Translations under genes and position numbers: made by a program
Origin: Candidatus Bipolaricaulota bacterium
Lineage (GTDB): Bacteria > Bipolaricaulota > Bipolaricaulia > UBA7950 > UBA9294
Assembly: GCA_023132915.1 (NCBI GenBank)
Contig: JAGLXM010000145.1
Location: 1 to 49,832 of the forward strand
Length of the DNA: 49,832 nucleotides
Direction of reading: 5' to 3'
Part shown: positions 11,846 through 47,447 of the stretch, one piece after another
How the letters are laid out: each line of letters opens with the position of its first letter
Position numbering within the stretch: the first letter of the stretch is position 1
The notes under the pieces: generated by a model
Told to the model about the DNA's origin: nothing
The model's input: only the letters and a program-made list of their open reading frames with translations
Databases searched by the model: none

Positions 11846-12665
11846 TTAATCAATCCCTTCCTCTGCGCGCTCCAACGCGGCTAGAAGCGTCCTTTTGGTG
11901 AGGAGGGACCGTTCGGCAGGATGTTCGAGAAAGGGCGAAACGTCCTCTGAAACGGAGATCCAGTCGAGCTGTTCCAACCTTTCACCGATGATTGACCGCC
12001 AGTTCTCATTCGTCACACGATCATCTTTCCAACCCGTCTGTTGAAGCGCGTTGTTCAGCAAGGACGATGTTGGGAACAACGGGCTCTGACCGAGTGAGGT
12101 ACCACAGAAGGTCATAGAGATCGCGTCCCTTGGTGTAGGATCGCATAAGGAGGGCGTGGATCTTCCCAGCCATCAGTGAAGGAAGGTCGTGGTGCCATAA
12201 TTCAAGCAGGAAGTGTCGGTTGATCACCGTTTGTTCGGTCTTTGCCCCAGGCGGAGGGTTCGTATCGATCTCAACCTTGATCGACAGCTTCTGAGTCCGG
12301 TGAGTGTTCAGTCCTGCCTCGTAGAGGAGTCCGGGAAACCGAAAGAAAGCTGAGTGCACCGCTTTCCCCGTCTTTGGATGCACTGACACCTCAAACCCTG
12401 CCTCGGTAAGGTCCGTCTCGGCTGCTTGGAGCAGTGTGTCAAGGCTGTAACCGGTTTTGCGTTCTAGGGAGAAATCAAGATCCTCGGAGAACCGAGGAAT
12501 GCCATAGATGAAACGGAGTGCGGTGCCGTCGACAAACGCCAGTTGCTCAAACGCCCGCTTTCCCTGAAGCGAGTAGAGGATGTGCGCCTGGAGGTACTCC
12601 CGCAGGAGATTTGCCTTCTGAGGCTCCGGTGTCTCTTTAACCAGTTGCAGCGCTCTATCCTTCAT
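11846..12665 (-). pseudogene. abiEii: AbiEii/AbiGii-family nucleotidyltransferase toxin, interrupted by a 1-nt frameshift near 12062
   Basis: Frame A (12021-12665): ...FVDGTALRFIYGIPRFSEDLDFS...YTKGRDLYDLLWYLTRSEPVVPN. Frame B (11846-12061) continues LLNNALQQTGW...SPFLEHPAERSLL. The joined length of about 273 aa is typical for the family. ATGA overlap with abiEi. Confidence 0.75.
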
Positions 12666-13297
12666 AGGGAAACCTCCTTGAGCAGTGCTTCGCGATGGGT
12701 GAGGAAACGCTCGACGCCTCGGTCAATTTTAGGCACCTTGATCCGGCGGGCAAAAGCGGAGAGCCGCTCTGGATCGATCTGGTCGAGGTTCTGGAACCGC
12801 ATCTCCTCGATTCGGGAAAGGGGGATCGGGCCGCTCCAGAAATAGAAGAGGTCGACGAGCGCCTTCTCCGGGAGGGCGATTGTGACCTCGATCCCACGGA
12901 GGAGGACCCTTTCAAAGCCGAAGAAGAGCCTTGATTGCACGTGACGGTAGCGAAACGTTCCAAGTGGAGTCTCCTGAACGACTGGACGCCTCGTTGTCAC
13001 GGAAGTGAGAACGGGTGTCGATTCAGGGATGAGCCCGTACCAGGAAAGGGCGCGTTCGAGGCTGACGTAGGAGGGATAGACAAGGCGGTTTGCCAGGTGT
13101 TCGAGCGGGGGATCGATCCTCCGATACGGTTTGGCTATCATGTACTTTCCGCGCGCAAGCTTGACCAACCGGCCGTTTGCCACCCAACGGCTCAATTGTA
13201 CTTGTAGCGCGCGTGGGTTGGGCTGACCGGCATAGACCATCGCCGGTTCAATCACCGGGCAGTCCCCGAAGCGTTTCAGAAAAGTCTCCCAATTCAT
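12662..13297 (-). CDS. abiEi: AbiEi-family type IV antitoxin / transcriptional regulator
   Basis: MNWETFLKRFGDCPVIEPAMVYAG...LSRWVANGRLVKLARGKYM (winged-helix N-terminus). Translationally coupled to the downstream AbiEii-like ORF. Confidence 0.75.
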   Translation of the reverse strand: MNWETFLKRFGDCPVIEPAMVYAGQPNPRALQVQLSRWVANGRLVKLARGKYMIAKPYRRIDPPLEHLANRLVYPSYVSLERALSWYGLIPESTPVLTSVTTRRPVVQETPLGTFRYRHVQSRLFFGFERVLLRGIEVTIALPEKALVDLFYFWSGPIPLSRIEEMRFQNLDQIDPERLSAFARRIKVPKIDRGVERFLTHREALLKEVSL

Positions 13298-13334
13298 AGC
13301 GAAAGTATAGCAAAAATGATATTGTTTTGCAACG
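13229..13334. repeat. left copy of an imperfect direct repeat of about 100 bp (abiEi first 23 codons plus promoter)
   Basis: Manual alignment with 14179-14273: 59/72 identical over the coding part and 21/24 over the upstream part. This copy has a 10-nt indel (13301-13310). Confidence 0.8.
13304..13332 (-). promoter_or_regulatory. candidate abiEi promoter (TTGCAA-17-TATACT), probably giving a leaderless mRNA
   Basis: The -10 element ends 6 nt before the ATG and there is no SD. Tandem 10-nt repeats TGCAACGTTA (13328-13337) and TGTAACGCTA (13343-13352) overlap or flank the -35. Confidence 0.45.
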
Positions 13335-13546: not shown

Positions 13547-13822
13547 ATGAACATTTCTACAGACATCAAGTCGGTGACATATCTCAAGTCCAGAGCAGCG
13601 GATCTATTGAAGCAGGTCAATGAGACTCGTCGCCCTGTAGTCATTACGCAAAATGGGGAACCAAGAGGAGTATTGCAAGACCCAAAGAGTTATGAAAACA
13701 TGCGAAATGCTATAGGAATTTTAAAACTTCTATCACAGGGTGAAGAGGATATTAAGAATGGCAGATCGAAATCTCAAAAAAGTGTATTTGAAAATATAGA
13801 GAAATTACTGACAGGTAAATGA
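13547..13822 (+). CDS. Phd/YefM-family type II antitoxin
   Basis: SVTYLKSRAADLLKQVNETRRPVVITQNGEPRGVLQD. GGAGGTGG SD. 4-nt overlap with the downstream toxin. Visibly AT-richer than its surroundings. Confidence 0.8.
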   Translation: MNISTDIKSVTYLKSRAADLLKQVNETRRPVVITQNGEPRGVLQDPKSYENMRNAIGILKLLSQGEEDIKNGRSKSQKSVFENIEKLLTGK

Positions 13823-14169
13823 GCGAGAAATACGAGGTACTGTGGGCTGCAACAGCTGAGGATGATTTAGCTAATATTGTAGACTACGTAGTCAATGACA
13901 GCCCTTCAAACGCGCTGAAAATACTACAAAAAATCAAAGAAACGGCCTCTCAGCTTTATCATTCCCCCGAGCGCGGACGCATCGTGCCAGAATTACAAGA
14001 TCAAGGTATCCTGCAATATCGAGAGTTGATTGTTCCCCCTTGGCGGATCATGTACAGAACAGCGGGGAAGAAAGTATTCGTCCTATCCGTGCTCGATTCA
14101 CGAAGAAACGTAGAAGACATTCTACTGGATCGACTCATTAAACCAAGAGGATATAACGGATACCAATGA
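13819..14169 (+). CDS. ParE/RelE-superfamily type II toxin
   Basis: YEVLWAATAEDDLANIVDYV...PERGRIVPEL...YRELIVPPWRIMYRTAGKKVFVLSVLDSRRN is ParE-like. Coupled to the Phd-like gene. Confidence 0.75.
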   Translation: MSEKYEVLWAATAEDDLANIVDYVVNDSPSNALKILQKIKETASQLYHSPERGRIVPELQDQGILQYRELIVPPWRIMYRTAGKKVFVLSVLDSRRNVEDILLDRLIKPRGYNGYQ

Positions 14170-14178
14170 AGTGTGGCT

Positions 14179-14273
14179 GGCATAGACGATTGCTGGTTCG
14201 ATCACCGGGCAGTTCCCGAATTGTTTGAGAAAGGTGTTCCAGTTTATAGCATAAATGATATTCTTCTGCAACG
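14179..14273 (-). pseudogene. abiEi' fragment: degenerate copy of the abiEi 5' end and upstream region (ATG mutated to ATA)
   Basis: Encodes INWNTFLKQFGNCPVIEPAIVYAS, compared with MNWETFLKRFGDCPVIEPAMVYAG in the intact gene. Starts 9 nt after the parE-like stop. Confidence 0.75.
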
Positions 14274-15517: not shown

Positions 15518-15607
15518 GATGTATTTCGAACATAACTCCTTAAGTCCATGCCGCAAAAACACCGGGCTCCAATATCATACAGCCGTTTGACCTGCGGATA
15601 ATGGCCT

Positions 15608-15690
15608 TCAGGGAAGCCCAAGGATCTCGACGATCCGCTCGGCCAGGGGTTTGGGAATCTTGGGGAGGGAGGCGATCTCTTCGATATTGC
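15608..15690 (-). pseudogene. uvrC' fragment: duplicated 3' end of uvrC
   Basis: 70/83 nt identical to 16621-16703 by manual alignment. Encodes NIEEIASLPKIPKPLAERIVEILGLP, compared with SIEEISSLPEIPKPLAERIVETLGRP at the real UvrC C-terminus. Confidence 0.8.
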
Positions 15691-15838: not shown

Positions 15839-16105
15839 TTAGGTGCTTTCTGCTTCAACCTTCTGCCAGAACTCCTTGTGTTCTACGCCTCCCGTCTCCC
15901 GAATCTGCTGCCGCGCTGTATTCAATATCGTTCGAAATCTCGGCGTGTAGACCAGTATCAGCCGCTCCAGCTCTTCCTCGTCTTCTACCGGCAGCAACAC
16001 CGCCACCGGCTTCCCGTACCGTGTCACCACTACCGGCCCCTCTGCGGACGCTTTCAAATAGGCGCTGAACCGTGCCTTCACCTCTGCTACTGACACTATC
16101 TTCAT
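15839..16105 (-). CDS. Phd/YefM-family type II antitoxin
   Basis: MKIVSVAEVKARFSAYLKASAEGPVVVTRYGKPVAVLLPVEDEEELERL. ATGA overlap with the upstream toxin gene. Confidence 0.8.
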   Translation of the reverse strand: MKIVSVAEVKARFSAYLKASAEGPVVVTRYGKPVAVLLPVEDEEELERLILVYTPRFRTILNTARQQIRETGGVEHKEFWQKVEAEST

Positions 16106-16422
16106 AGTTCCACTTCCTCTCCACCTATGACCAACCGATTTTCCTCTTTCACCCCTATTGCCAGGATGTACACCTTCTCCTGCTCCCGATCTATTTCGTA
16201 GAACACCCGAAATCGGTTGTTCGGCCCAAATCGTACCTCCCACTCTGCTTCAAAGACCACGGTGCGCTTCAATGGCTTCCGGTTCCTTGTTTCTACATCC
16301 GGCTCAAACTGTAGTTGTGCTTCAATCTCGTTGCGAATCAGCGCATAGTATTTGCGCTCAATCACCTGTAGCTGTTTCTTTACTTCCCGTGCATAAATCA
16401 GGGTAAAATGTCGCTTCGACAT
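16102..16422 (-). CDS. RelE/ParE-superfamily type II toxin (the toxin gene comes first)
   Basis: FTLIYAREVKKQLQVIERKY...WEVRFGPNNRFRVFYEIDREQEKVYILAIGVKEENRL, 106 aa. Confidence 0.7.
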   Translation of the reverse strand: MSKRHFTLIYAREVKKQLQVIERKYYALIRNEIEAQLQFEPDVETRNRKPLKRTVVFEAEWEVRFGPNNRFRVFYEIDREQEKVYILAIGVKEENRLVIGGEEVEL

Positions 16423-16511: not shown

Positions 16512-16621
16512 CAGAGTTCAGTGGGAGAGAGGAACTCCTTCTAAAGTTTCTTTGATCCGTACCTTACGTGATTACTGAACTTCAGTATTCCGTAGTCATT
16601 TGAACGCCGGATAGTTGATCT

Positions 16622-18469
16622 TCAAGGCCGCCCGAGGGTCTCGACGATCCGCTCGGCAAGGGGTTTGGGAATCTCGGGGAGGGAGGAAATCTCCTCGATG
16701 CTCGCACGCGAGAGCCGATCGAGTGAGCCGAAACGCTTGATGAGCGCCGATCTTCTCTTCGGCCCTACACCTGGGATCTCATCTAGCTGTGAGGAGAGCG
16801 AGCGGCGGGCGCGCAGCCGGCGGTGATAGGTGATCGCGAACCGATGGGCCTCATCGCGGATCTGGCGGAGCAGGAGAAGCGCTTTGCTATCAGGTGGAAG
16901 GCAAATCGGGTCCGACTTTCCAGGCTGAAAGACCTCCTCGTGACGCTTGGCGAGACCGATCGTCTCGATCCCATCGACCTCGAGTTCGGTCAAGACCGAT
17001 ACCGCGACGTTCAGCTGCCCCTTCCCCCCATCGATTAGCAACAAGTCGGGAAACTGTGAGAACTTCCCGCGCGACACGCTGGGATCGTTTAACTCGGCTA
17101 AGCCGCGGCGGAAACGACGGCGGAGGACCTCGGCCATCATCGCGTAGTCGTCCGGTTTCCCTCCAAAGCGCACCTTGAACCTACGGTAGGCGTCGCGCAG
17201 GGGACGTCCGTTCTCGAAGACGACCATCGACCCGGTCGCCTCCCCTCCTTGCGTGTTTGAGATGTCGAACGCTTCGATCCGCTGCGGGAAAGAGGAGAGT
17301 GAGAGTGCTTCGGCGAGCTCGGCCAGGGCGGCGCTTGACTCTTCGCGGAGCGAAGTCGTGATTCTCTCCCCTTTAAGGGAATAGCGCGCGTTTTCGTTCA
17401 CCATCTCGACCAATCGGTGCTTCTCCCCGCGTTGGGGAACCTTCAATCTTGCACGCTTCCCGCGTAGGGAGGAGAGCCACGCACCGATCCGCTCGGCGTC
17501 CGGGATCTCCGTTGGAAGGAGGACCTCCTGTGGGATAGTTGTCGCCGCGGCGTAGTACTGGGCGAGGAAGGCGGAGAGGACCTCCTTTACACTCGGTTCT
17601 TGAGGGGCGCGTAGGTGAAAGGTCTTCCGGCCGCTTAACCGTCCCTCGCGGATGAGGAAGACCTCGGCACAGGCGCGATCCTTATCGATCGCGATCCCGA
17701 TCGCGTCGCGGTCGATTGTATCAGGAAGAGCGACCGACTGCCGTTCAAGGGCGCGGCTAAGCGCGGTGATCTGATTCCGTATGTTCGCTGCCTGCTCGAA
17801 CCGCTTCTCCACGGCTGCCGCCCCCATCCGCTCTCGCAGGCGCTTTACCAACCCAAAGGTCCGTCCATCGAAGAGCATCGCTGCTCCTTCGACGGCTTGA
17901 GCGTATTCCTCCTCGCTCACGAGATTGGCGCACGGTCCCAGACACCGGCCGATATGGTAGTTGAGGCAAGGCCTGCGCGGCTTCTTTAAGGGGAGGGTAA
18001 GGTTACAGGTGCGAATCGGGAATAGCTTCTGGGCGAGCTTGAGGGTCGATCGCATCGCCTTGGCGTTGGTATAGGGGCCGAAGTAACGGGCCCCGTCTTT
18101 GTGTCGGCGGCGGACGATCATCACTCGCGGGTAGGGTTCATCGGTGATCTTTAGGTAGGGATAGCGCTTGTCGTCGCGCAGGCGGATGTTGAACCGCGGC
18201 TGGTGGCGCTTGATCAGGCTGTCCTCGAGGATGAACGCCTCTGCCTCGGTGGTGGTCTTGATAACCTCAAGGTCAGCAATCTCAGACACCAACGCTCGTG
18301 TCTTTACCTCCATCCCCTGAGTTGAGTGAAAGTAGGAGCGGACTCTGGTTTTGAGCACCGCGGCCTTCCCCACGTAGATCACTGCCCCTCCCGCGTCCTT
18401 CATCAGGTAAACCCCGGGCGAGGAGGGAAGTTGAGCGAGCTTCTCAGTGATACGATCGGTTGTCGGCAT
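16622..18469 (-). CDS. uvrC: excinuclease ABC subunit C
   Basis: GIY-YIG N-terminus (PGVYLMKDAGGAVIYVGKA), UvrBC-interaction and RNase H-like regions, C-terminal (HhH)2. Start ATG 18469, with in-frame alternatives up to 18511. Confidence 0.93.
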   Translation of the reverse strand: MPTTDRITEKLAQLPSSPGVYLMKDAGGAVIYVGKAAVLKTRVRSYFHSTQGMEVKTRALVSEIADLEVIKTTTEAEAFILEDSLIKRHQPRFNIRLRDDKRYPYLKITDEPYPRVMIVRRRHKDGARYFGPYTNAKAMRSTLKLAQKLFPIRTCNLTLPLKKPRRPCLNYHIGRCLGPCANLVSEEEYAQAVEGAAMLFDGRTFGLVKRLRERMGAAAVEKRFEQAANIRNQITALSRALERQSVALPDTIDRDAIGIAIDKDRACAEVFLIREGRLSGRKTFHLRAPQEPSVKEVLSAFLAQYYAAATTIPQEVLLPTEIPDAERIGAWLSSLRGKRARLKVPQRGEKHRLVEMVNENARYSLKGERITTSLREESSAALAELAEALSLSSFPQRIEAFDISNTQGGEATGSMVVFENGRPLRDAYRRFKVRFGGKPDDYAMMAEVLRRRFRRGLAELNDPSVSRGKFSQFPDLLLIDGGKGQLNVAVSVLTELEVDGIETIGLAKRHEEVFQPGKSDPICLPPDSKALLLLRQIRDEAHRFAITYHRRLRARRSLSSQLDEIPGVGPKRRSALIKRFGSLDRLSRASIEEISSLPEIPKPLAERIVETLGRP

Positions 18470-21072: not shown

Positions 21073-21085
21073 GTTGTTTGCTAAT

Positions 21086-21161
21086 GGGGGTGTAGCTCTA
21101 ACGGGAGAGCGCCTGCTTTGCACGCAGGAGGATGGCGGTTCGAATCCGCTCGCCTCCACCA
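21086..21161 (+). tRNA. tRNA-Ala (anticodon UGC), CCA encoded
   Basis: The cloverleaf folds by hand: acceptor GGGGGTG/CGCCTCC with the G3:U70 Ala identity pair, anticodon loop TTTGCAC, T-loop TTCGAAT. Confidence 0.92.
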
Positions 21162-21274
21162 GAACAAAGCCGAATCGCTCTGTTTAAGTGGCTTTTCGCT
21201 GCTTCTCCCCAACAGATCCGAGATACACGAATGGAGAACGGTGTTTCATCCTGGTGGGTAGTCCTGCAAGTAGC

Positions 21275-21303
21275 TTGACAAATTCCCGAGCCGTAACTAT
21301 TCT
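21275..21303 (+). promoter_or_regulatory. candidate promoter TTGACA-17-TATTCT for the 1260-aa gene (very short or no leader)
   Basis: The -10 element ends 9 nt before the ATG at 21313. No SD is visible. Confidence 0.4.
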
Positions 21304-21312
21304 CAGTTTAAG

Positions 21313-24300
21313 ATGAATGGGGGAATCTTCACGCTTTCCAGGGAAGAACTGCGGCGGCTTGACTCGACGGAGGCAGTGCAAGCTTTCCGAGAGCTTCTGT
21401 GGGCGGAAGCTACAGCCCTTTCAATCGCGAAGAACCTCATCGATGTACCTGGCTCGATAAACGCGCGAGATGGAGGGATCGATGCCAAGGTAGAGGGCGT
21501 AACCGTTGGCACGGGGCAAGGAATCATTAAGGCCGGCACAACCTGCTATCAGATCAAGGCGGGAAAATTCAGTCCAACTCAGCCCGCGAACATCACCAAG
21601 ATTCTTTGTCGCCCATCTCCCAACAACCACGAATTGCAGCCTAAGGTCAAGACATGTCTTGACCAGGATGGTACGCTGGTAGTCGTGCTATTCGGGAACG
21701 ATAGCCCTGATCAGACTGATAATCAGCTGAAGAACCTATACATTAGCAGGCTTTCGAAAATCGATGTCAGATACAAGTCCGCAACAGTGGAGGTTTGGAG
21801 ACAGAGCAAGTTGTTGGGTTTCTTCCAGCGATTTCCTTCTCTTGTTCTCAAACTGAAGCGCTATGACAATGCGCCTTTCAAGTTCCACGATAGCTGGGCG
21901 GACGAACCGGAAATGCGAAGGCGTCTTGAAGTCGGACAACATCAAGAATCGCTGATCGCCGAGGTTCGGGAGGTTCTAAGGCGTGATGCCGATGGCGCTA
22001 TTCATCTGCGTGTGAGCGGCGCTCCAGGGATTGGCAAAACGAGACTGATTCTCGAAGCAACTCGTGCAGAGGACCTTGCTCCGCTCGTCATATACTGCCA
22101 ATCAGCATCCGTCTTTCGCGACAGCCTGCTCTTGCATCAGATGACCCGGAGAGACAACGAAGGTCGTGTCCTACTTGTCATCGATGAGTGTGCTGCTGGG
22201 GAGAGCGCTGAGTTCTGGAACGGCTTGGCATCGATGGGCTCCCGGCTCAAACTGATCACGATCCATCACGAGGCGAATCCTACTAGCGGACGTACTGTCC
22301 GAGTCGAGATTCCGCGACTGGGCGATGACCAAGTGGAGAAGATAATGGCTAGCTACGATATCCCTGAGGAGCAAGCTACTAGGTTCGCCAGCTACTGCAA
22401 AGGATCTCCACGGGCAGCACACGTGCTAGGGCAGAACCTAGCCGCCAATCCAGAGGATCTGCTACGGACGCCGGACACTGTTCTCGTATGGGATCGCTGG
22501 GTCGCAGGGCGAGATGATCTCGACAGTCAGGTCGTTCGAGAGAGGCGCACGGTTCTTCGCTATCTCGCATTGTTTAAGGGTTTCGGTTTCGGTCCACCGT
22601 ATGGCGGTGAAGCAAGAGCTATTGCAGGTATGATCGAAGGCGCAGACCGGGCAATTACACTGCCTAAGTTCTCTGAGATCATCCAGGGACTCAGGCAGCG
22701 GAAGCTCCTGCAAGGTGAGACAACGCTCTACATTGCACCGGACGTCCTGCACATCAGGCTGTGGAGCGAATGGTGGGATACGTACGGGCCTACAATCGAT
22801 ATCGTCGATTTCGTTAACCGATTACCGTTCGAACTGCGTGAAGGTTTCTTCGAGATGTTTCGCTATGCCCGGGAATCCGAGATCGCTTCTAGAGCTGTTG
22901 AGCGACTAGTCGGCCCGGGTGGACCGTTTTGGGACACGGAGCTCCTTCAGACAGAGCTTGGTGGTAGTTTTTTTCGCGCATTGACTGAAGCCAATCCTCG
23001 AGCAACGCTGCGATGCCTTGAGAACTCTATTCCCAACTGGGGTCTGGAGCGGATTCTTCAATTCACAAGCGGCAGACGCCAGAGCATTGAAGCACTTCAG
23101 CTCATCTGCGTGTGGCGCGAACTCTTCGCTGGTGCAGCAAGAGTACTGCTCCTCTTGGCGGAAGGAGAGAACGAGAGCTGGGCCAACAACGCTACCGGAG
23201 TTTTCGTAGACCTCTTTTCTCCAGCTCCCGGACGAGTGGCTCCAACAGAAGCGTCTCCAGAAGAACGGTTTCCGGTACTGAAAGAAGCGCTTCTTTTTGG
23301 CACGGACGCGCAGCAAGCCATCGCCGTCCAAGCCTGCGGCTCTGCCTTGAGTACAGGCCCATTCATGCGTATGGCTGGGCCCGAGCATCAGGGCCTTCGA
23401 CCCGAGGCGCAGCTCTGGAGCCCAAGGAGCAGGCAAGAGCACATCGATGCGTACCGCCGGGTGTGGGGTCTGTTGGTCGAGCATCTTGGCAACTTGCCGG
23501 ACACAACTCGCAGTGAAGCAGTCTCAATCCTCCTTCGGCAAGCTCAAGGACTAGTGGCAATCCCCGAACTCGAAAACCTCGTTCCGAACGACATCGGAAA
23601 ACTTGTCGAGCAGGGAATTGCATCCGACCGTGAGGTTGTGTCGACCGCTGCAGAGATCCTCCACTACCACGGCAGCGGTCTGTCGCCAGGTGCGCGGTCT
23701 CGCTGGGAGGCGCTACACGCCAGTCTGGCTGAGGCCGACTTCCATTCAAGATTGCGGCGCTACGTTGGCACCGCCCTGATATCGGATCACTTCGACGAAA
23801 CCGGGGAAAGAACTGACCGGAAGCAGTCAACGCTTGCTGAACTTGCTGAAGAAGCTCTCAATGATCTCGCACTTCTCGGTCCCGAGCTTCCCTGGCTAGT
23901 CACTGCCGAAGCAGAGGATGGTTACAGATTTGGCTATGAACTAGGCAAGAGAGACATTGAATCCTCTCTACTCCCGGGGCTGCTCGACGCACAGAAGGGA
24001 GCTGGGATTGCCGGAAGCTTAATGCTTCTGAGCGGATACCTTTGTGCGGTATCGGAGCGGGATGCTGCGAAATGCGAAAACCTCTTTGATGGCTTGCTGG
24101 AGAACAAGGACACGGCGGGCTGGGTGTTCGAGCTGGTATGGAGAAGCGGTGTAGTCACAGAGCGCACTACGAGAGTGATTCTTGGACTGCTGCGCGAGGG
24201 ATCTCTTGATCCGACAGACTTGCGCATGTTCGCATACGGCGGGCGCGTTCAGGATCTTTCGCAGGACATGTTTGAAAGCTGGGTTGAGATTCTTGTTGAC

Positions 24301-25095
24301 GGCCCCTCAGCTGAATACCTTTCGACGGCGCTGGTTCTGTCTAGGATGTACGAGGAGCAGACCGGATCGAGTGTGCCTGACCCCCTTCTGGAGAGGCTTC
24401 TTCTTCACTCTGTTTGGTTCTCCGAGGTCTCCAATTCATTGTCAAGCCAGACTGACGACTGGGCATGGTGCGAGCTCGCGACGCGGCTCATTGCACGCAA
24501 ACCTGAGGCAAGGCGCTTACTTGCCGAGAAGGTCCTCATGAACTTTGGTTCGAGGGGAATTGTATCGGGCAGACGCGTAGGGAGTGTGGTCAAGTTTCTC
24601 GCGAGGACGATCGATGAGGCTCCGGCGGAGTTGTGGGACCTCATCTCGCCCGATCTTGCCGACGGAGATACAAGGACATTCTGGATCAAGCAATGGCTCC
24701 AAGGAAGTGATTCGTTTGGATTGGTGCAGAATGGGGCACTTGAGCTGTTCCCCACCGAATTGATCTGGAGATGGGTCGAGGAAGATCCCAGCGAACGGGC
24801 CCCCATCCTTGCCTCACTTGTGCCCAAGGATTTGGGCGCCGACCCCTCCTATACGAGGGAACTCCTTGTTCGATACGGGAATATCGAGGGCGTACCGGTG
24901 GCCCTGAACGGCAGATATGCAAATGAGGGGTGGACGGGCCCGGAGAGCGAGCACTTTACGAAACGAAGAGACCACTACCTATCGATCCGAAATGATGAGT
25001 CGGATGTGCGGGTGGTGAGTTGGCTTGACAAGTACATCGAGTACTTGGACTACATGATCCGGCGTGCCGAGATTGAAGAGGAGAGGGAGGCATAG
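21313..25095 (+). CDS. Mrr-like PD-(D/E)xK nuclease / STAND-type P-loop NTPase / long helical C-terminal region (Avs-like single-gene candidate defence protein)
   Basis: aa 24-85: FRELLW...ARDGGIDAKVEG...CYQIKAGK (D53, D57, Q80-x-K82). Walker A VSGAPGIGKT (aa 234-243, nt 22018-22041). Walker B VLLVIDE (aa 286-292, nt 22168-22188). About 900 further residues are Leu/Ala/Glu/Arg-rich with no catalytic motif. Confidence 0.65.
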   Translation: MNGGIFTLSREELRRLDSTEAVQAFRELLWAEATALSIAKNLIDVPGSINARDGGIDAKVEGVTVGTGQGIIKAGTTCYQIKAGKFSPTQPANITKILCRPSPNNHELQPKVKTCLDQDGTLVVVLFGNDSPDQTDNQLKNLYISRLSKIDVRYKSATVEVWRQSKLLGFFQRFPSLVLKLKRYDNAPFKFHDSWADEPEMRRRLEVGQHQESLIAEVREVLRRDADGAIHLRVSGAPGIGKTRLILEATRAEDLAPLVIYCQSASVFRDSLLLHQMTRRDNEGRVLLVIDECAAGESAEFWNGLASMGSRLKLITIHHEANPTSGRTVRVEIPRLGDDQVEKIMASYDIPEEQATRFASYCKGSPRAAHVLGQNLAANPEDLLRTPDTVLVWDRWVAGRDDLDSQVVRERRTVLRYLALFKGFGFGPPYGGEARAIAGMIEGADRAITLPKFSEIIQGLRQRKLLQGETTLYIAPDVLHIRLWSEWWDTYGPTIDIVDFVNRLPFELREGFFEMFRYARESEIASRAVERLVGPGGPFWDTELLQTELGGSFFRALTEANPRATLRCLENSIPNWGLERILQFTSGRRQSIEALQLICVWRELFAGAARVLLLLAEGENESWANNATGVFVDLFSPAPGRVAPTEASPEERFPVLKEALLFGTDAQQAIAVQACGSALSTGPFMRMAGPEHQGLRPEAQLWSPRSRQEHIDAYRRVWGLLVEHLGNLPDTTRSEAVSILLRQAQGLVAIPELENLVPNDIGKLVEQGIASDREVVSTAAEILHYHGSGLSPGARSRWEALHASLAEADFHSRLRRYVGTALISDHFDETGERTDRKQSTLAELAEEALNDLALLGPELPWLVTAEAEDGYRFGYELGKRDIESSLLPGLLDAQKGAGIAGSLMLLSGYLCAVSERDAAKCENLFDGLLENKDTAGWVFELVWRSGVVTERTTRVILGLLREGSLDPTDLRMFAYGGRVQDLSQDMFESWVEILVDGPSAEYLSTALVLSRMYEEQTGSSVPDPLLERLLLHSVWFSEVSNSLSSQTDDWAWCELATRLIARKPEARRLLAEKVLMNFGSRGIVSGRRVGSVVKFLARTIDEAPAELWDLISPDLADGDTRTFWIKQWLQGSDSFGLVQNGALELFPTELIWRWVEEDPSERAPILASLVPKDLGADPSYTRELLVRYGNIEGVPVALNGRYANEGWTGPESEHFTKRRDHYLSIRNDESDVRVVSWLDKYIEYLDYMIRRAEIEEEREA

Positions 25096-25328
25096 GGTCT
25101 TTTCAGTATGCCTTGGCCAACGTGCGCATCGGAAGAAGGTTCGCCAATCGTTCACGCCAGGCTCTACCAAGAAGGATTCACTCGATCGAACGATCCGCGC
25201 CCGTGCTGCAGCGCCGAGTCGGAGAGATGGTGAAGGAGAACGCGAGCACCGGACCTATCGGGTGGATAAATATCCTACGTGGCCGCCGTCCCTGTTCATG
25301 CTCATCTTGTATGAGACAACTTTTTGCG

Positions 25329-42991: not shown

Positions 42992-44389
42992 TTAGCTCAC
43001 CACCTCAGTCAAGGCATCGACCAATCGGTCCAGATCAGCTTTCGTGTGAACTTCGGTCACGCAATACAAGGCGCTCTCGCCAAGCTCGGGGAATTCGCTG
43101 GTTAGGCTCTTCCCACCAAAGATCTTGTAGTTTAGAAGTGCTGCGTTGATTTCCGCCACAGCCTTGCCCGTGCCATCGAAATTGACCCCGAACTCCTTGA
43201 AGTGAGGGGCTGCAAAGATCGGCGCCTTGACCCCGTCTATCTCCGAAAGCTTAGCCATTAGGTACTTCGCGCGTTGCATCACGCCCTCGCCGAGTTCCTG
43301 CATCCCCTGCGGCCCCATCAGTGCCAAGTACACCCCGGCTGTGATCCCCCACAATGCAGAAGCAGTCCCGACGAATTCCTTGCCCTCCTCCCGTTCTGCA
43401 AACGAGGTCCGCTCATAGGCCACATCACCGAAACCGTACTCGCCTTCTACAGATGTCGGGGCAATTCCGAATAAGCGAGACGGATACTCCATCACGTACT
43501 TCTCTTCATCGCGTGTGGCGATGAACCCGGCATGGCCACCACCGAATTGCATGTGCATCCCCAGCGACTGAATGTCGCCACAGACGATATCGGCACCATA
43601 GTCCACTGGAGGAGCCATTACACCCAACGAGATCGGATCGACACCAACGACGCAGATTCCCCCATGGTCGTGGACAATTTCGGCGATCTCATCTCCGTGC
43701 GCTTCGAGGGAACCAAGGTGGGAGGGATTCTCGAAATAGACGGCTGCTGTTTTCGACGAGATGGCAGTTTGGAGTGCCGACAGATCGATCTGGCCAGTCT
43801 TGGCATCGTAATCAAGAAGCCTGATCTGTAGATTTGGGGCACAGTAGTCCCTGATCTTCGATAGGACTGCAGGATGGATCGTCTTAACGATCAAGGCTTC
43901 CTGGCGTCCGGTGATCCTTGCCGCCATGCGGACGGAGGTCGCTGCAGCTTGCAAGCCATCATAGGTCGGCACATTGACGACATCCATGTTCAGAAGCTCA
44001 CCCATCATACTGGCATACTCGAACAGCGCTTGGAACCGACCGTGGTCATCGTACGGCTCACCGGCGTAGGCGGTGAGGAACTCACTGCGCTGATTGATTT
44101 CATCACATACTGCGGGCACATGGTGTTGGTAGCACCCCGCTCCCAAAAAGCTGAGATACTCCTGACAGGTCCTATTTCTCGAAAGGATTCCCTCCACATG
44201 CCGTTTCAATGCACATTCGGACAGAAGCGATTCGGGTAGATTCAGAGGCTTCTTGAGTCGGAGAGCTTCGGGGACATCCTCGTAGAAGTCCTCTTCACTC
44301 CTCGCTCCTACCCCCTTGAGCATCTCCTGTTTTACCCTGGGCACGGAGTTCGGAATGTAGGGGTAAACGATTGCTCGATTTTCGCTCAT
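42992..44389 (-). CDS. gcvPA: glycine dehydrogenase (aminomethyl-transferring) subunit 1-like
   Basis: YPYIPNS...FLGAGCYQHHVPAV...EFLTAYAGEPY. AGGAGG SD 8 nt before the ATG at 44389. Confidence 0.85.
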   Translation of the reverse strand: MSENRAIVYPYIPNSVPRVKQEMLKGVGARSEEDFYEDVPEALRLKKPLNLPESLLSECALKRHVEGILSRNRTCQEYLSFLGAGCYQHHVPAVCDEINQRSEFLTAYAGEPYDDHGRFQALFEYASMMGELLNMDVVNVPTYDGLQAAATSVRMAARITGRQEALIVKTIHPAVLSKIRDYCAPNLQIRLLDYDAKTGQIDLSALQTAISSKTAAVYFENPSHLGSLEAHGDEIAEIVHDHGGICVVGVDPISLGVMAPPVDYGADIVCGDIQSLGMHMQFGGGHAGFIATRDEEKYVMEYPSRLFGIAPTSVEGEYGFGDVAYERTSFAEREEGKEFVGTASALWGITAGVYLALMGPQGMQELGEGVMQRAKYLMAKLSEIDGVKAPIFAAPHFKEFGVNFDGTGKAVAEINAALLNYKIFGGKSLTSEFPELGESALYCVTEVHTKADLDRLVDALTEVVS

Positions 44390-44435
44390 ACGCACTGCCT
44401 CCTTTATCAGTCACCAGGTGATGACGTTTGGTTCC

Positions 44436-44467
44436 CCCAAGGCATCTTTTTTTTCAGATGCCTTGGG
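44436..44467 (-). promoter_or_regulatory. 11-bp perfect hairpin in the gcvPA upstream/leader region
   Basis: CCCAAGGCATC - 10-nt T-rich loop - GATGCCTTGGG, 47-78 nt upstream of the gcvPA ATG. No flanking T-run on either strand. Confidence 0.3.
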
Positions 44468-44836
44468 ACATCTCCGCCGCATGTTCCATACTTTATAGCG
44501 CATCCCCCCTTGCTGAAACGATTTTTAGGGATCGATGGTTACAAGACTAAGACTATCGGATTTTTGATCAACATTCGATCATTTTACTCCAGGTGGCGTA
44601 TCCAAGAGCACTCCTAGCTAAAGCTCCCCTAAATGATACTGGGACCTCGATCCAAATGCGACGACTCTCAACAAGCCAGTCTGAAGGAATCGCTTTCGCA
44701 TCCGATCCATCACTTCCCCAAAAAGCCAAACCAAGTGGCCAGAGCCCTTCCGAGTTGGCAACCTCGCAACTTTAGAGGTACAACTGTGACCCAAAGGATT
44801 CTTAATCTCCGCTATCTTTGCTCGAGGAGGATGAGC

Positions 44837-45172
44837 ATGGAGAACATTAGCTTTGATGATTGGAAGAAACTGCAGATTAGGGTCGGCAAGATTCTGGAGG
44901 TGCAAAGGGTACCAAAGACGGACAAACTTTATCGATTGCAAGTCGACATTGGTGCGGATGACCCAATGCAAATTGTTACCAGTTTGGTACCCTACTATTC
45001 GAAAGAGGAATTGGTTCATCAGACGATCATCGTCTTGGTTAATCTGCAGCCAGCCTGCTTTGCAGGAGAAATCTCGGAAGGGATGCTCCTTTGTGCCGAA
45101 AAGGACGATGGCAGCGAATGTGTACTTTTGACTGTGCAAAAGGACATCGATGTCGGAACTCTCATCACCTAA
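44837..45172 (+). CDS. tRNA-binding domain protein (CsaA/Trbp111-like, OB fold)
   Basis: LQIRVGKILEVQRVPKTDKLYRLQVDIGADDPMQIVTSL...VLVNLQPACFAGEISEGMLL. GAGGAGG SD. Confidence 0.8.
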   Translation: MENISFDDWKKLQIRVGKILEVQRVPKTDKLYRLQVDIGADDPMQIVTSLVPYYSKEELVHQTIIVLVNLQPACFAGEISEGMLLCAEKDDGSECVLLTVQKDIDVGTLIT

Positions 45173-46311
45173 AAGTCTCGACGCGCAGCCCTGGAACTGT
45201 GCCCGCTTTTTGCTTCATCGAGCGCCATTGCGATATTCTCAAGACCAGTCGCTAGCTCCTGCCTTGTGGGCCATCCATAGCCAATCCTGAAGTACCGGTC
45301 ATCCTGCTCGAACCAGTGACCTGGGCCAACAAAGGTTTTGTAACGGTCCCACAGTAAGCGGTAAAATTTCCTCACATCGACTTCCATATCCTCCCTGATC
45401 CTAGGAAAACACACTGCTCCTCCTTTGGGTCGTATGTATTCCAGATCGGTCTGAGTCTTCATCCAGTCGCTTAAGACCTCGAAGTTCGCTTGCACATGGG
45501 CGTTGCCGTCGCTAATCAACTGGTCTTTCCTTTCTAGGACTGAGAGGGCAATCTTCTCATCGACCACTGAGTTACAGATGTTGATCTGCTCTTTCACGGC
45601 AAGAAAGGATTCCAGGAGAGAAGTGTTTCGCATTGCAATCCATCCGATGCGAATCCCTGGACAACCGTATGCTTTTGAGAGGGTCGATATACTGATTGCC
45701 TTTGGGCTCAAGGACGCTGCGGTTGGCAGTTTCGCATGAAAGGTGAGCTCGCGATAGGTCTCATCGAAGATGAGAAAAGTGTCAGAAGATTCAGCTATCG
45801 CGATGACCGCTTCCAAGGTGTCTTCGGAAATCATCGTTCCTGTTGGGTTATGCGGATGAGTGAGGCTGATCAGTTTGGTCTGTGGAGTTACCAGGTGCTT
45901 GAGCCTGTCTACGTCTAATTCGAATTGGGCTTCGAAGTGTAAAGGAAGGACATCCACTGTGCAGCCCAACGAGCGCGGCACCTCGTAGTTGGAGGGATAG
46001 TTTGGATGTTCCACGACTACGTGATCGCCCGGTTTGAGAAGTGTGGCCGCGACGACAAACAGGGCTTCTGCAGCACCACCGGTCACGAGAATCTGATCAA
46101 AGGGAAGCCCATCATACTGTTCGGCGATCTGTTCGCGAAGGGCAGGTTGCCCCCAGTGATGGCCGTAGCACATAAGAATTTTCCCCAGATCGATGTCTAT
46201 TCCACGGAGGTAGCGATCTGGGACCGAGCTCTCACTCAAGTTGTAGTCGATGGCACCATACCCGTATTCCTCAGGAGACTCCCTCTCTATCGCCATACGC
46301 TTAAACCGCAT
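45169..46311 (-). CDS. PLP-dependent aminotransferase, class I/II
   Basis: IDYNLSESSV, HPHNPTG, STLSKAYGCPGIRIGW (PLP lysine), 380 aa. Confidence 0.82.
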   Translation of the reverse strand: MRFKRMAIERESPEEYGYGAIDYNLSESSVPDRYLRGIDIDLGKILMCYGHHWGQPALREQIAEQYDGLPFDQILVTGGAAEALFVVAATLLKPGDHVVVEHPNYPSNYEVPRSLGCTVDVLPLHFEAQFELDVDRLKHLVTPQTKLISLTHPHNPTGTMISEDTLEAVIAIAESSDTFLIFDETYRELTFHAKLPTAASLSPKAISISTLSKAYGCPGIRIGWIAMRNTSLLESFLAVKEQINICNSVVDEKIALSVLERKDQLISDGNAHVQANFEVLSDWMKTQTDLEYIRPKGGAVCFPRIREDMEVDVRKFYRLLWDRYKTFVGPGHWFEQDDRYFRIGYGWPTRQELATGLENIAMALDEAKSGHSSRAARRDF

Positions 46312-46396
46312 AATAGAATCATCTCCTCATAAAGTGCCTTATATTGTCCGCAAACAGGTTACCAGTTAGACCATGTCTTAAAGCTTGGTTTGCACC

Positions 46397-47386
46397 TCAG
46401 ACCTCGATCGGTTCTCCCAGACCCTTTTCCGTTGCCTTTCGATAGGCCAGCAAGGCTATCACCGTATCCTGCACACCGACACCAGTTAGATCACATATAG
46501 TGATCTCTTCATCCGATCTACGGCCAGGCTTTTGGCCGGAGGAAAGCTGTCCCAGCTCGATGATCTCGTCATCCTGGGGAATAATGCCTTCCTCCAGTCC
46601 GTGATGCAACTCACCCAGGCGAAAACACTGCGATTTCCGGTCACAGGCTAGAAGATCAGCATGACGCAGCACGTCAGCGTGCAGCTCCTGCTTCTCCTCA
46701 GCATCAGCTCCCATCGCTGTGATGTGTAGTCCGGGGTGTAACCACTGGGCCTTCAGGTAAGGATCGTGCGATGGCGTCGTTGTTACTACGACATCGCTGC
46801 CTCTGACAACAGCCTCTGCATCCTCCGCCTTCATGATCTCCACACCCAGCACTGGTGCCATCTCTGAAGCGTACTGCTCAACCTCCTCGGGAATTATGCC
46901 GTAGATCATCAGTCTCCGAAAGTCACGCACTAGCTTTAGAGCCATCATCTGGTAGCGAGCTTGTGCGCCAGTCCCGATGACGCCGGCTGTATCGATCTTC
47001 TCACGGGCAAGATACTTGGCTGCTATTGCACCCGCAGCACCAGTGCGCACATTGGTCAAATAGCCGTTATCCAACATGAGCGCCTCAGGGACGCCGGTCT
47101 TGGCGCTTACGATCACCATTAGGCCACTGCCACTGGGCAAACCCAAGCGGTAGTTTTCGAAGAACCCTGAGGCTATCTTGATGGCAAAGCTGTCGAGTCC
47201 CCGTATATAGGCGGTCTTGACGTCCACCTCACCTTTATTCTCCGGGATGTCAACTCGCATTATGGGTGGTATGGTGGCCATCCCATTAGCCAAGCGAGTA
47301 AAACCATCCTCAACGATCTCAATCGCCTCTTGGTCCATCCCTACGCATCTCCGAATCTCAGACTCCGTCAATATAGTGATCGCCAT
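46397..47386 (-). CDS. ornithine cyclodeaminase / mu-crystallin family protein
   Basis: GYLTNVRTGAAGAIAAKYLA and VIGTGAQARYQ (Rossmann motif). AGGAGG SD 5 nt before the ATG at 47386. Confidence 0.82.
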   Translation of the reverse strand: MAITILTESEIRRCVGMDQEAIEIVEDGFTRLANGMATIPPIMRVDIPENKGEVDVKTAYIRGLDSFAIKIASGFFENYRLGLPSGSGLMVIVSAKTGVPEALMLDNGYLTNVRTGAAGAIAAKYLAREKIDTAGVIGTGAQARYQMMALKLVRDFRRLMIYGIIPEEVEQYASEMAPVLGVEIMKAEDAEAVVRGSDVVVTTTPSHDPYLKAQWLHPGLHITAMGADAEEKQELHADVLRHADLLACDRKSQCFRLGELHHGLEEGIIPQDDEIIELGQLSSGQKPGRRSDEEITICDLTGVGVQDTVIALLAYRKATEKGLGEPIEV

Positions 47387-47447
47387 CTTCACCTCCTTCG
47401 TGGTGTGTCCAGCCGCCGTCTCTGCTGGGTACTACCTCAACGACCGC

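Follow-up and report, generated by a model that had tools for sequence, protein, structure and literature searches.

A probable antiviral STAND receptor from a third, deep-branching clade within the Avs8 superfamily, carried as a single-gene cassette in a Candidatus Bipolaricaulota bacterium

What is the role of a large solitary gene that lies between a tRNA gene and the housekeeping gene frr in a bacterium of a poorly studied phylum? This question is raised by contig JAGLXM010000145.1 of Candidatus Bipolaricaulota bacterium (assembly GCA_023132915.1), of which a stretch of 49,832 nucleotides, referred to here as the window, was analysed. The coding sequence spans positions 21313..25095 on the plus strand, starts with ATG and encodes 1260 amino acids (aa). 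It begins 151 bp after tRNA-Ala(tgc) (21086..21161, plus strand; anticodon UGC), as had been described in an original prediction made from the sequence alone. That prediction read the product as a stand-alone antiviral protein that joins an effector nuclease, a signal transduction ATPase with numerous domains (STAND) nucleoside triphosphatase (NTPase) and a repeat sensor. Homology to Avs8A, structural models, invariant residues, a mobile distribution and defence neighbours in other genomes all uphold this reading. The gene probably encodes a single-protein antiviral STAND (Avs) receptor of a deep, uncharacterised clade of Avs8 (PD-lambda-4), acting by the mechanism proposed below.

The closest characterised relative emerged from PADLOC, where the sole match of the window protein is PD-Lambda-4_A (= Avs8A; E 3.9e-23, 79 bits), with aa 5–711 aligned to positions 3–712 of the 1283 in the profile. 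The protein covers 55% of that profile, short of the full-length match needed for automated calling; a genuine Avs8A from an Enterobacter plasmid (Enterobacter cancerogenus WP_222892472.1) scores 1777 bits over model positions 1–1283. BLASTP aligned the window protein to the same Avs8A colinearly over aa 4–684, with 21% identity.

Profile–profile comparison carried the relationship further. A profile of 27 Avs8A sequences, compared by hhalign with a profile of the window family, aligned over 1205 columns (6–1266 against 2–1276 of 1283) with a probability of 100% and E 1.2e-43. Module by module, the N-terminal domain matched Avs8A at 99.2% (E 1e-19) and the STAND module at 98.7% (E 3.5e-16). 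Within the sensor, aa 561–800 matched the Avs8A sensor at 97.9% (E 3e-13), aa 700–1000 at 80% (E 1e-5) and aa 700–1260 at 91% (E 1e-6); aa 950–1260 reached 10.6% (E 0.003) and were colinear only. A reversed-sequence control gave 0.2% (E 0.25). The module-wise results indicate homology along nearly the whole length, with the distal sensor as the most diverged part. Furthermore, a Thalassobaculum protein forms an intermediate that aligns near full length to both profiles (552 and 288 bits). The original prediction had been unable to place the gene in a named clade and allowed for an undescribed lineage; this is superseded, since the gene can be placed in a deep-branching sister clade within the Avs8/PD-lambda-4 superfamily.

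Avs8 is the new name of PD-lambda-4, and its protein Avs8A combines a nuclease of Mrr type with a STAND NTPase and a repeat domain (10.1101/2025.07.02.662641; 10.64898/2026.01.04.697583). Avs8A binds the lambda capsid protein gpE with a dissociation constant of 127 nM, as well as other HK97-fold major capsid proteins (10.1101/2025.07.02.662641). Capsid binding triggers a Mg/ATP-dependent dsDNase activity of Avs8A, and nuclease mutants lose defence; Avs8A defends alone, Avs8B being dispensable (10.1101/2025.07.02.662641). Sensing of the capsid protein by Avs8 also came out of an independent screen (10.64898/2026.01.04.697583). Related Avs families sense different core phage proteins, and unrelated sensors can converge on one target (10.64898/2026.01.04.697583). 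A 2024 survey recorded PD-Lambda-4 in Proteobacteria only and counted Bipolaricaulota as one of the phyla in which the fewest systems were detected.

The N-terminal effector (aa 1–205; 21313..21927, plus strand, as are all features of the gene given below) is a candidate PD-(D/E)xK-type (Mrr-like) nuclease, an assignment made from its motifs, its modelled topology and its homology to the Avs8A domain, whose activity was shown experimentally. Residues D53-G-G-I-D57 (21469..21483) supply, where β2 begins, the acidic residues that would bind metal, and Q80-I-K82 (21550..21558) forms a putative (E/Q)xK catalytic motif in β3 that is conserved and also present in Avs8A. The D-x3-D...(E/Q)-x-K layout noted in the original prediction is borne out by an alignment of 109 full-length homologs, in which D53, G55, D57, Q80 and K82 are invariant, together with G239, G241, K242 and D291 of the NTPase. 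Similarly, D53, G54, G55 and D57 are invariant in a 20-sequence alignment of N-terminal domains that includes Avs8A, and the DGGxD and QxK motifs are invariant both in the window family and in Avs8A. An AlphaFold2 model of aa 1–205 (predicted local distance difference test score, pLDDT, 90.5; predicted template-modelling score, pTM, 0.85) shows a small α/β domain with the order α1 (residues 18–35, with the nearly invariant E32), β (43–44), β (58–63), β (75–82), α (91–98) and β (121–126). In this model, D53 and D57 precede the strand at 58–63 and Q80 and K82 lie within the strand at 75–82, which fits the canonical order of the PD-(D/E)xK core.

The effector is followed by a STAND NTPase with a P-loop nucleotide-binding domain, a helical domain and a winged helix (aa ~205–490; 21925..22782), assigned by Foldseek and hhalign. 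Its Walker A motif, G236-APGIG-K242-T243 (22018..22041), is present where the original prediction had put it, at aa 234–243, although the motif proper is confined to aa 236–243. The Walker B motif, VLLVI-D291-E292 (22168..22188), starts at V286 and ends at residue 292, just as predicted, with D291 invariant. Residues G236, T243 and E292 are conserved in at least 90% of the 109 homologs, as are G364, S365, P366 and R367. The first three of the latter, G364-S-P366 (22402..22410), form a GxP-type motif in the helical domain, which we take to be the STAND GxP signature of Leipe et al. (2004).

The remaining ~770 residues form a C-terminal α-solenoid sensor of HEAT/ARM-like type (aa ~491–1260; 22783..25092) in the AlphaFold2 model of aa 195–1260 (pLDDT 90.6, pTM 0.77). 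Foldseek matched this model at probability 1.00 (E 1e-6 to 1e-4) to Apaf-1 (E 1.4e-6), NRC2/3, Roq1, CED-4, NOD2 and SAMD9, and matched the sensor to the α-solenoids SF3B1, importins, CAND1 and FANCI. The model of aa 195–1260 thus shows a STAND NTPase that leads into a HEAT-like sensor. No NCBIfam family matched the whole protein, neither Pfam nor NCBIfam matched the all-helical C-terminus, and a sequence search of the PDB with the whole protein gave nothing significant (best E 0.04) and no sequence-related solved structure. The C-terminus had been called helical, motif-free and unrecognisable; the first two descriptions stand, but the last was overstated, since only the final ~300 aa are too diverged to match Avs8A alone. 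In AlphaFold2 and Foldseek, the protein thus has the tripartite organisation general to Avs proteins, with effector, STAND NTPase and repeat sensor in one polypeptide. The other general traits of Avs genes are also found, namely a patchy accessory distribution, plasmid copies and defence-gene neighbours.

The family to which the window protein belongs is large. More than 170 homolog clusters were obtained at 90% identity, nearly all of 1255–1285 aa and all named 'hypothetical', and at least 219 GTDB species representatives from many bacterial phyla and several archaeal lineages have a member. Bacterial carriers include Poribacteria (many), Chloroflexi, Brocadia, Nitrospirae, Acidobacteria, Saccharibacteria and other candidate-phyla-radiation bacteria; archaeal carriers include Aenigmatarchaeota, Methanophagales, Methanosarcinales and Nitrosopumilus. 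Plasmid copies occur in cyanobacteria and haloarchaea. An exhaustive phmmer search with the sensor alone, clustered at 50% identity, returned 493 clusters at E≤1e-30 and 2113 at E≤1e-3. Among the top 150 sensor matches, the sensor of full-length proteins starts at about residue 550–590 of ~1260 aa, and the shorter entries look like contig fragments. This uniform start indicates a fixed architecture, with no effector swapping seen among those 150. Within the family, in bacteria and archaea alike, sensor and NTPase are conserved to about the same degree, which is in keeping with a ligand protein that is universally conserved among tailed viruses. Two variations on the family theme were observed: three proteins of 1337–1340 aa (P0031, P0035 and P0042) have an N-terminal extension of ~75 aa with a LexA DNA-binding domain (PF01726) before the nuclease domain, and one Poribacteria chromosome (OZ246960.1) encodes two diverged paralogs (L034 and L070) with 40% and 37% identity to the query.

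A neighbour-joining tree of 1218 columns, in which plasmid-borne intermediates were included, resolved at least three deep clades. Clade I holds Avs8A with Burkholderia and Bacillus cereus relatives; clade II, which is intermediate, holds Thalassobaculum, Rhizobium and Nostoc sequences; and clade III is the window family, in which Pseudanabaena is nested and Haloarcula branches at the base. On sequence grounds, the window protein is a member of the third of these deep clades within the Avs8 superfamily, outside the Avs8A clade sensu stricto. Clade III comprises about 500 clusters at 50% identity and is evidently missed by standard tools.

Comparison with other contigs shows at which sites the gene occurs. 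Three contigs that carry close homologs (L006, L102 and L103) match the window by blastn at 21210–25155 only (89.3%), and a fourth (L101) matches it at 21231–25113 only (85.4%). What they share is the gene with about 100 bp of 5′ flank, which holds the promoter, and at most 60 bp of 3′ flank, so that a mobile single-gene cassette of promoter, coding sequence and ~60 bp of 3′ sequence can be delimited at 21210..25155 (plus strand). Homologs with 89%, 83% and 72% protein identity occupy at least three further contexts that are absent from the window, and one close homolog adjoins a RelB antitoxin gene and a gene of the metallo-β-lactamase (MBL) fold. Contig L007 has its copy, the 72% homolog, inserted between gcvP and a gene for a tRNA-binding protein, two genes that directly adjoin each other in the window (~44.4–44.6 kb). 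The matching 'empty site' of the window is the intergenic stretch 44396–44632 between divergent gcvP (42992–44395, minus strand) and the tRNA-binding-domain gene (44633–45172, plus strand). The flanks of the L007 insertion are 75–81% identical in DNA to the window, although the contig is labelled 'uncultured Thermotogae'; L006 is labelled 'uncultured Pirellulales'. Given the identity of the L007 flanks to the window, the bin labels of both contigs are probably unreliable.

Related strains show that the gene is accessory at this position, a point on which the original prediction had sought a synteny comparison. Contigs with an identical ATP synthase c-subunit (AtpE) share 93–99% DNA identity with the window from position 25324 onward, and the nearest strain, L087, is 98.7–99.4% identical downstream of this breakpoint. 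In those related strains, a patatin gene lies directly upstream of frr and the Avs8-like gene is absent from the site. The right-hand synteny breakpoint at 25324, located by blastn of L087, L090, L091, L093 and L095, by alignment and by gene maps, sits just 5′ of the frr promoter. In L087, the patatin gene is preceded by LPG-synthase and glycosyltransferase genes; the window lacks this upstream DNA entirely. Because these upstream genes are all missing, the difference is a large rearrangement or replacement that ends at the frr promoter, and not a simple one-gene insertion. A 229-bp spacer (25096–25323) separates the stop codon from the breakpoint; its part at 25156–25323 has no counterpart in either the cassette homologs or the patatin-type strains.

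The Avs8-like gene is an accessory, mobile cassette: it changes chromosomal site and crosses from phylum to phylum and between domains with no dedicated partner and no integrase. As the original prediction had stated, no integrase was found beside the gene and no partner gene was found either; a search for att-like direct or inverted repeats flanking it gave only short chance matches. The suggestion that the tRNA gene serves as a landing pad fared less well. None of 60 other family loci has a tRNA within ~3.5 kb, close homologs sit at other sites, and tRNA-adjacent integration is thereby ruled out as a family trait; the adjacency to tRNA-Ala in the window is incidental. As a separate observation, the assembly of sample ERZ23498622 breaks inside tRNA-Ala, with one contig ending at 21131 and another starting at 21077 (window 21077–21131), which suggests alternative junctions or a second identical copy of tRNA-Ala in the population.

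The cassette brings its own promoter. A σ70-type promoter, TTGACA-17 nt-TATTCT (21275..21303, plus strand), has its −35 hexamer TTGACA at 21275–21280 and its −10 hexamer TATTCT at 21298–21303 and ends 9 nt before the ATG, exactly as had been read from the sequence. A scan found four promoter-like sites in the region against 2.1 ± 1.5 expected, and the three on the plus strand lie directly 5′ of the tRNA gene, the Avs8-like gene and frr. No Shine–Dalgarno sequence is visible upstream of the Avs8-like ATG; with a promoter 9 nt from the start codon, this implies a leaderless or near-leaderless mRNA. The −35 and −10 hexamers and the 9-nt distance to the ATG are kept in homologs of 89%, 83% and 72% protein identity. 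Hexamers, spacing and ATG distance are found in all four Bipolaricaulota-type homologs, including that of L007 despite its unrelated upstream flank. Many Poribacteria copies also have a promoter of their own, TTGACA-N17-TATCCT, followed by a short leader with a Shine–Dalgarno sequence (GGAG), and their upstream block is conserved. A leaderless layout across the whole family, which might have aided transfer between domains, was considered and rejected: TAnnnT is present 5–12 nt upstream of the start codon at 16 of 76 loci, against 97 of 726 control open reading frames (ORFs). No intrinsic terminator was found 3′ of the gene.

Codon usage sets the gene apart from its neighbours. Its GC content at third codon positions (GC3) is 0.590, the second lowest of the window, against 0.678 ± 0.048 for 28 window ORFs and 0.62–0.73 for frr and the atp genes; the preference for A/T-ending codons that had been noted by eye is real, and the low GC3 is in keeping with an accessory, mobile gene. 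The overall GC content of the gene is not anomalous.

The surroundings of family members in other genomes are in part those of defence genes. When large genes directly beside family members were sampled, four of ten proved to be for defence or candidate defence, namely PDC-S01, a type III methyltransferase, a GajA/OLD-like protein and PDC-S15; in a second sample of neighbours, one of ten was a defence gene. A type IIG restriction–modification/PglX-like gene adjoins a family member in 13 loci, and the Pseudanabaena plasmid copy adjoins a DrmD-like helicase, a methyltransferase and an IS1 element. No conserved partner gene was found in 78 loci, the largest neighbour cluster (13/78) being lineage-specific, and PADLOC gave no match, to Avs8B or otherwise, in the flanking ORFs. 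Since Avs8B is dispensable, a two-gene operon with Avs8B is not essential for membership of Avs8. In the window itself, a complete AbiE abortive-infection/toxin–antitoxin system (12021–13297, minus strand) lies ~8 kb upstream of the Avs8-like gene and consists of AbiEii (12021–12665, minus strand; PADLOC E 2e-57) and AbiEi (12662–13297, minus strand; PADLOC E 2e-49). AbiE and two Phd/ParE pairs together occupy the region 5–9 kb upstream.

From these elements and from the biology of Avs proteins, a mechanism can be proposed. The protein would be produced constitutively from its own promoter on a leaderless mRNA; the promoter and its layout are present in the DNA, and expression is presumed from them. 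At rest it would be an autoinhibited monomer, as expected from Avs biology. During infection, the C-terminal α-solenoid would wrap around a monomer of a conserved phage protein, for which homology makes the HK97-fold major capsid protein the likeliest choice. Ligand binding would cause ATP/Mg-dependent oligomerisation of the STAND module, probably into a tetramer, and this would gather the N-terminal PD-(D/E)xK nucleases, with E32, D53, D57, Q80 and K82 as putative catalytic residues. By analogy with the biochemistry of Avs8A, the nucleases would then degrade phage and host dsDNA with no sequence preference, and infection would be aborted at the cell's cost. The capsid protein as ligand is the most tentative step, drawn by analogy and held at somewhat less than even confidence; the divergence of the distal sensor precludes a firmer assignment.

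Several results weigh against the reading of the gene as an Avs8-type receptor. The window protein is distant from Avs8A, with 17% identity in the tree alignment and ~17–21% overall, and the last ~300 aa of its sensor show no significant similarity to Avs8A on their own, so that its ligand may differ from that of Avs8A. Foldseek matched the N-terminal model to no PDB structure at E<0.001, the weak matches being EcoO109I (E 0.23) and Cap4 (query template-modelling score 0.44, E 1.1), and a PDB profile search with the same domain found nothing relevant. Pfam assigned neither Mrr_cat (PF04471) nor another nuclease family to any of 20 isolated N-terminal domains, Avs8A included, even at E 10, and the full-length window protein likewise failed to match Mrr_cat. 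The Mrr-like label of the original prediction thus holds for motif, topology and homology to Avs8A, but not at the level of a profile or fold match. The STAND module, for which AAA_16 and NB-ARC searches had been proposed, also stayed below threshold in Pfam (AAA_16, 21.6 bits against a cut-off of 32.6; NB-ARC, 10.7 bits against 23.5, E 0.31), and its assignment comes instead from the Foldseek and hhalign matches described above. Finally, the immediate neighbours in the window are the housekeeping genes frr, the atp operon and uvrC, and many Poribacteria loci have MoxR/DUF58/BatA-type neighbours, which are not defence genes.

The alternative that best survives these points retains an Avs-type STAND nuclease and gives it another trigger, such as a portal, terminase or tail protein, or a perturbation of the host. 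It is possible, though rather unlikely. The unmatched last ~300 aa (10.6%) speak for it, and the window clade lies two deep branches away from Avs8A; the differing core phage proteins sensed by related Avs families, and the capacity of unrelated sensors to converge on one target, speak for it as well. Against this, the window family and Avs8A are colinear almost from end to end and nearly equal in length (1260 against 1283 aa), the proximal and middle parts of the sensor are clearly homologous to those of Avs8A (97.9% and 80%), and intermediate proteins align with both profiles almost in full. A related proposal, which is likewise rather unlikely, is that clade III is a functionally distinct Avs family, whose distal sensor recognises either another virion protein or the capsids of both bacterial and archaeal tailed viruses.

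A non-immune role, as a signalling or regulatory ATPase whose N-terminal domain is a degenerate or DNA-binding PD-(D/E)xK-like fold, is improbable. Defence and non-defence STAND clades are interspersed, and such a role would accord with the missing direct nuclease fold match and with housekeeping flanks in the window and in many Poribacteria loci. However, the putative catalytic residues are invariant across ~100 divergent homologs, the N-terminal domain shares homology with its counterpart in Avs8A, whose DNase activity has been demonstrated, and the gene is accessory, mobile and plasmid-borne, with defence neighbours enriched. Least credible of all is a type IV (modification-dependent) restriction enzyme that couples an Mrr-like nuclease to an NTPase motor and cleaves modified foreign DNA directly: the D...QxK motif does resemble that of Mrr, and McrBC- and GmrSD-type systems also couple an NTPase to a nuclease, but the NTPase here is of STAND type (Apaf-1/NLR-like by Foldseek) and not a GTPase or translocase motor, a 770-aa α-solenoid is typical of protein sensors, the Mrr_cat profile does not match, and Avs8A, as the nearest characterised relative, responds to a protein trigger.

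An Avs-type receptor of the Avs8 superfamily is thus the preferred reading, and its likeness to known systems can be stated part by part. With Avs8A (E. coli ECOR07 WP_000963924.1), the window protein shares size and domain order, a DGG[IV]D...QxK nuclease domain, a STAND NTPase and a helical-repeat sensor. Avs8A acts as a single gene, and by analogy the window protein may do so too; both are accessory genes that occur in the vicinity of other defence genes. The two differ in clade (I for Avs8A, III for the window protein), in the helical-domain motif (GNA in Avs8A where the window family keeps GSP, or GxP), in the presence of an Avs8B neighbour, which the window gene lacks, and in their hosts, which are Gammaproteobacteria for Avs8A and Bipolaricaulota, Poribacteria, Chloroflexi, candidate-phyla-radiation bacteria and archaea for the window family.

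Other relatives stand further off. Avs3 and Avs4 (Mrr/Cap4-type nucleases) and Avs7 (Cap4) follow a common logic of effector nuclease, STAND NTPase and sensor of tetratricopeptide-repeat-like type. In these families, a phage-protein monomer reportedly triggers oligomerisation and DNA degradation (Gao et al. 2022). The window protein matches no PADLOC profile of Avs1–5, and no structure of Avs3, Avs4 or Avs7 is among its top 50 Foldseek matches. With the eukaryotic STAND proteins and nucleotide-binding leucine-rich-repeat receptors (NLRs), that is Apaf-1, CED-4, the NB-ARC of NRC/Roq1, NOD2 and SAMD9, it shares the fold of the NTPase, helical domain and winged helix, at 12–16% identity; those proteins have CARD, TIR or coiled-coil (CC) effectors and WD40 or leucine-rich-repeat (LRR) sensors. 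Mrr (Mrr_cat PF04471) resembles the N-terminal domain in an acidic residue at the start of β2, QxK in β3 and the order α-β-β-β-α-β. In contrast to Mrr, the window protein lacks a winged-helix DNA-recognition domain, and its nuclease domain would be the output module of a STAND receptor.

Further features of the window were recorded. Rfam identified three tRNAs and nothing else, and the upstream 180-aa ORF, earlier labelled 'OMP-like', matched neither Pfam nor PADLOC. The two Phd/ParE pairs (13547–14169, plus strand, and 15839–16422, minus strand) are each flanked by direct repeats of ~80 nt, at 13224–13300 and 14174–14250 for the first and at 15606–15685 and 16620–16699 for the second, with 81% and 88% identity. 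One repeat copy overlaps the 5′ end of AbiEi and one overlaps the 3′ end of uvrC; the arrangement looks like cassette insertion with a long target duplication. At 45169–47392 (minus strand), adjacent aminotransferase and ornithine cyclodeaminase ORFs have a GC3 of 0.58–0.60 against a mean of 0.68, and this may be another acquired segment.

The Avs8-like gene reveals no new mechanism or architecture; it belongs to a distant clade of a known superfamily. The range of Avs8/PD-lambda-4 is extended far beyond Proteobacteria, to a large clade in poorly studied bacterial phyla and archaea. The locus itself is a clean example of a promoter-bearing, single-gene defence cassette that moves with neither integrase nor repeats. 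Clade III offers natural sensor variants on a fixed architecture, with which to ask how the recognition of capsids, or of other patterns, diverges. Should its members prove to recognise the capsids of tailed viruses in both domains, one receptor design would have stayed unchanged across bacteria and archaea, spreading as a self-promoted single-gene cassette.

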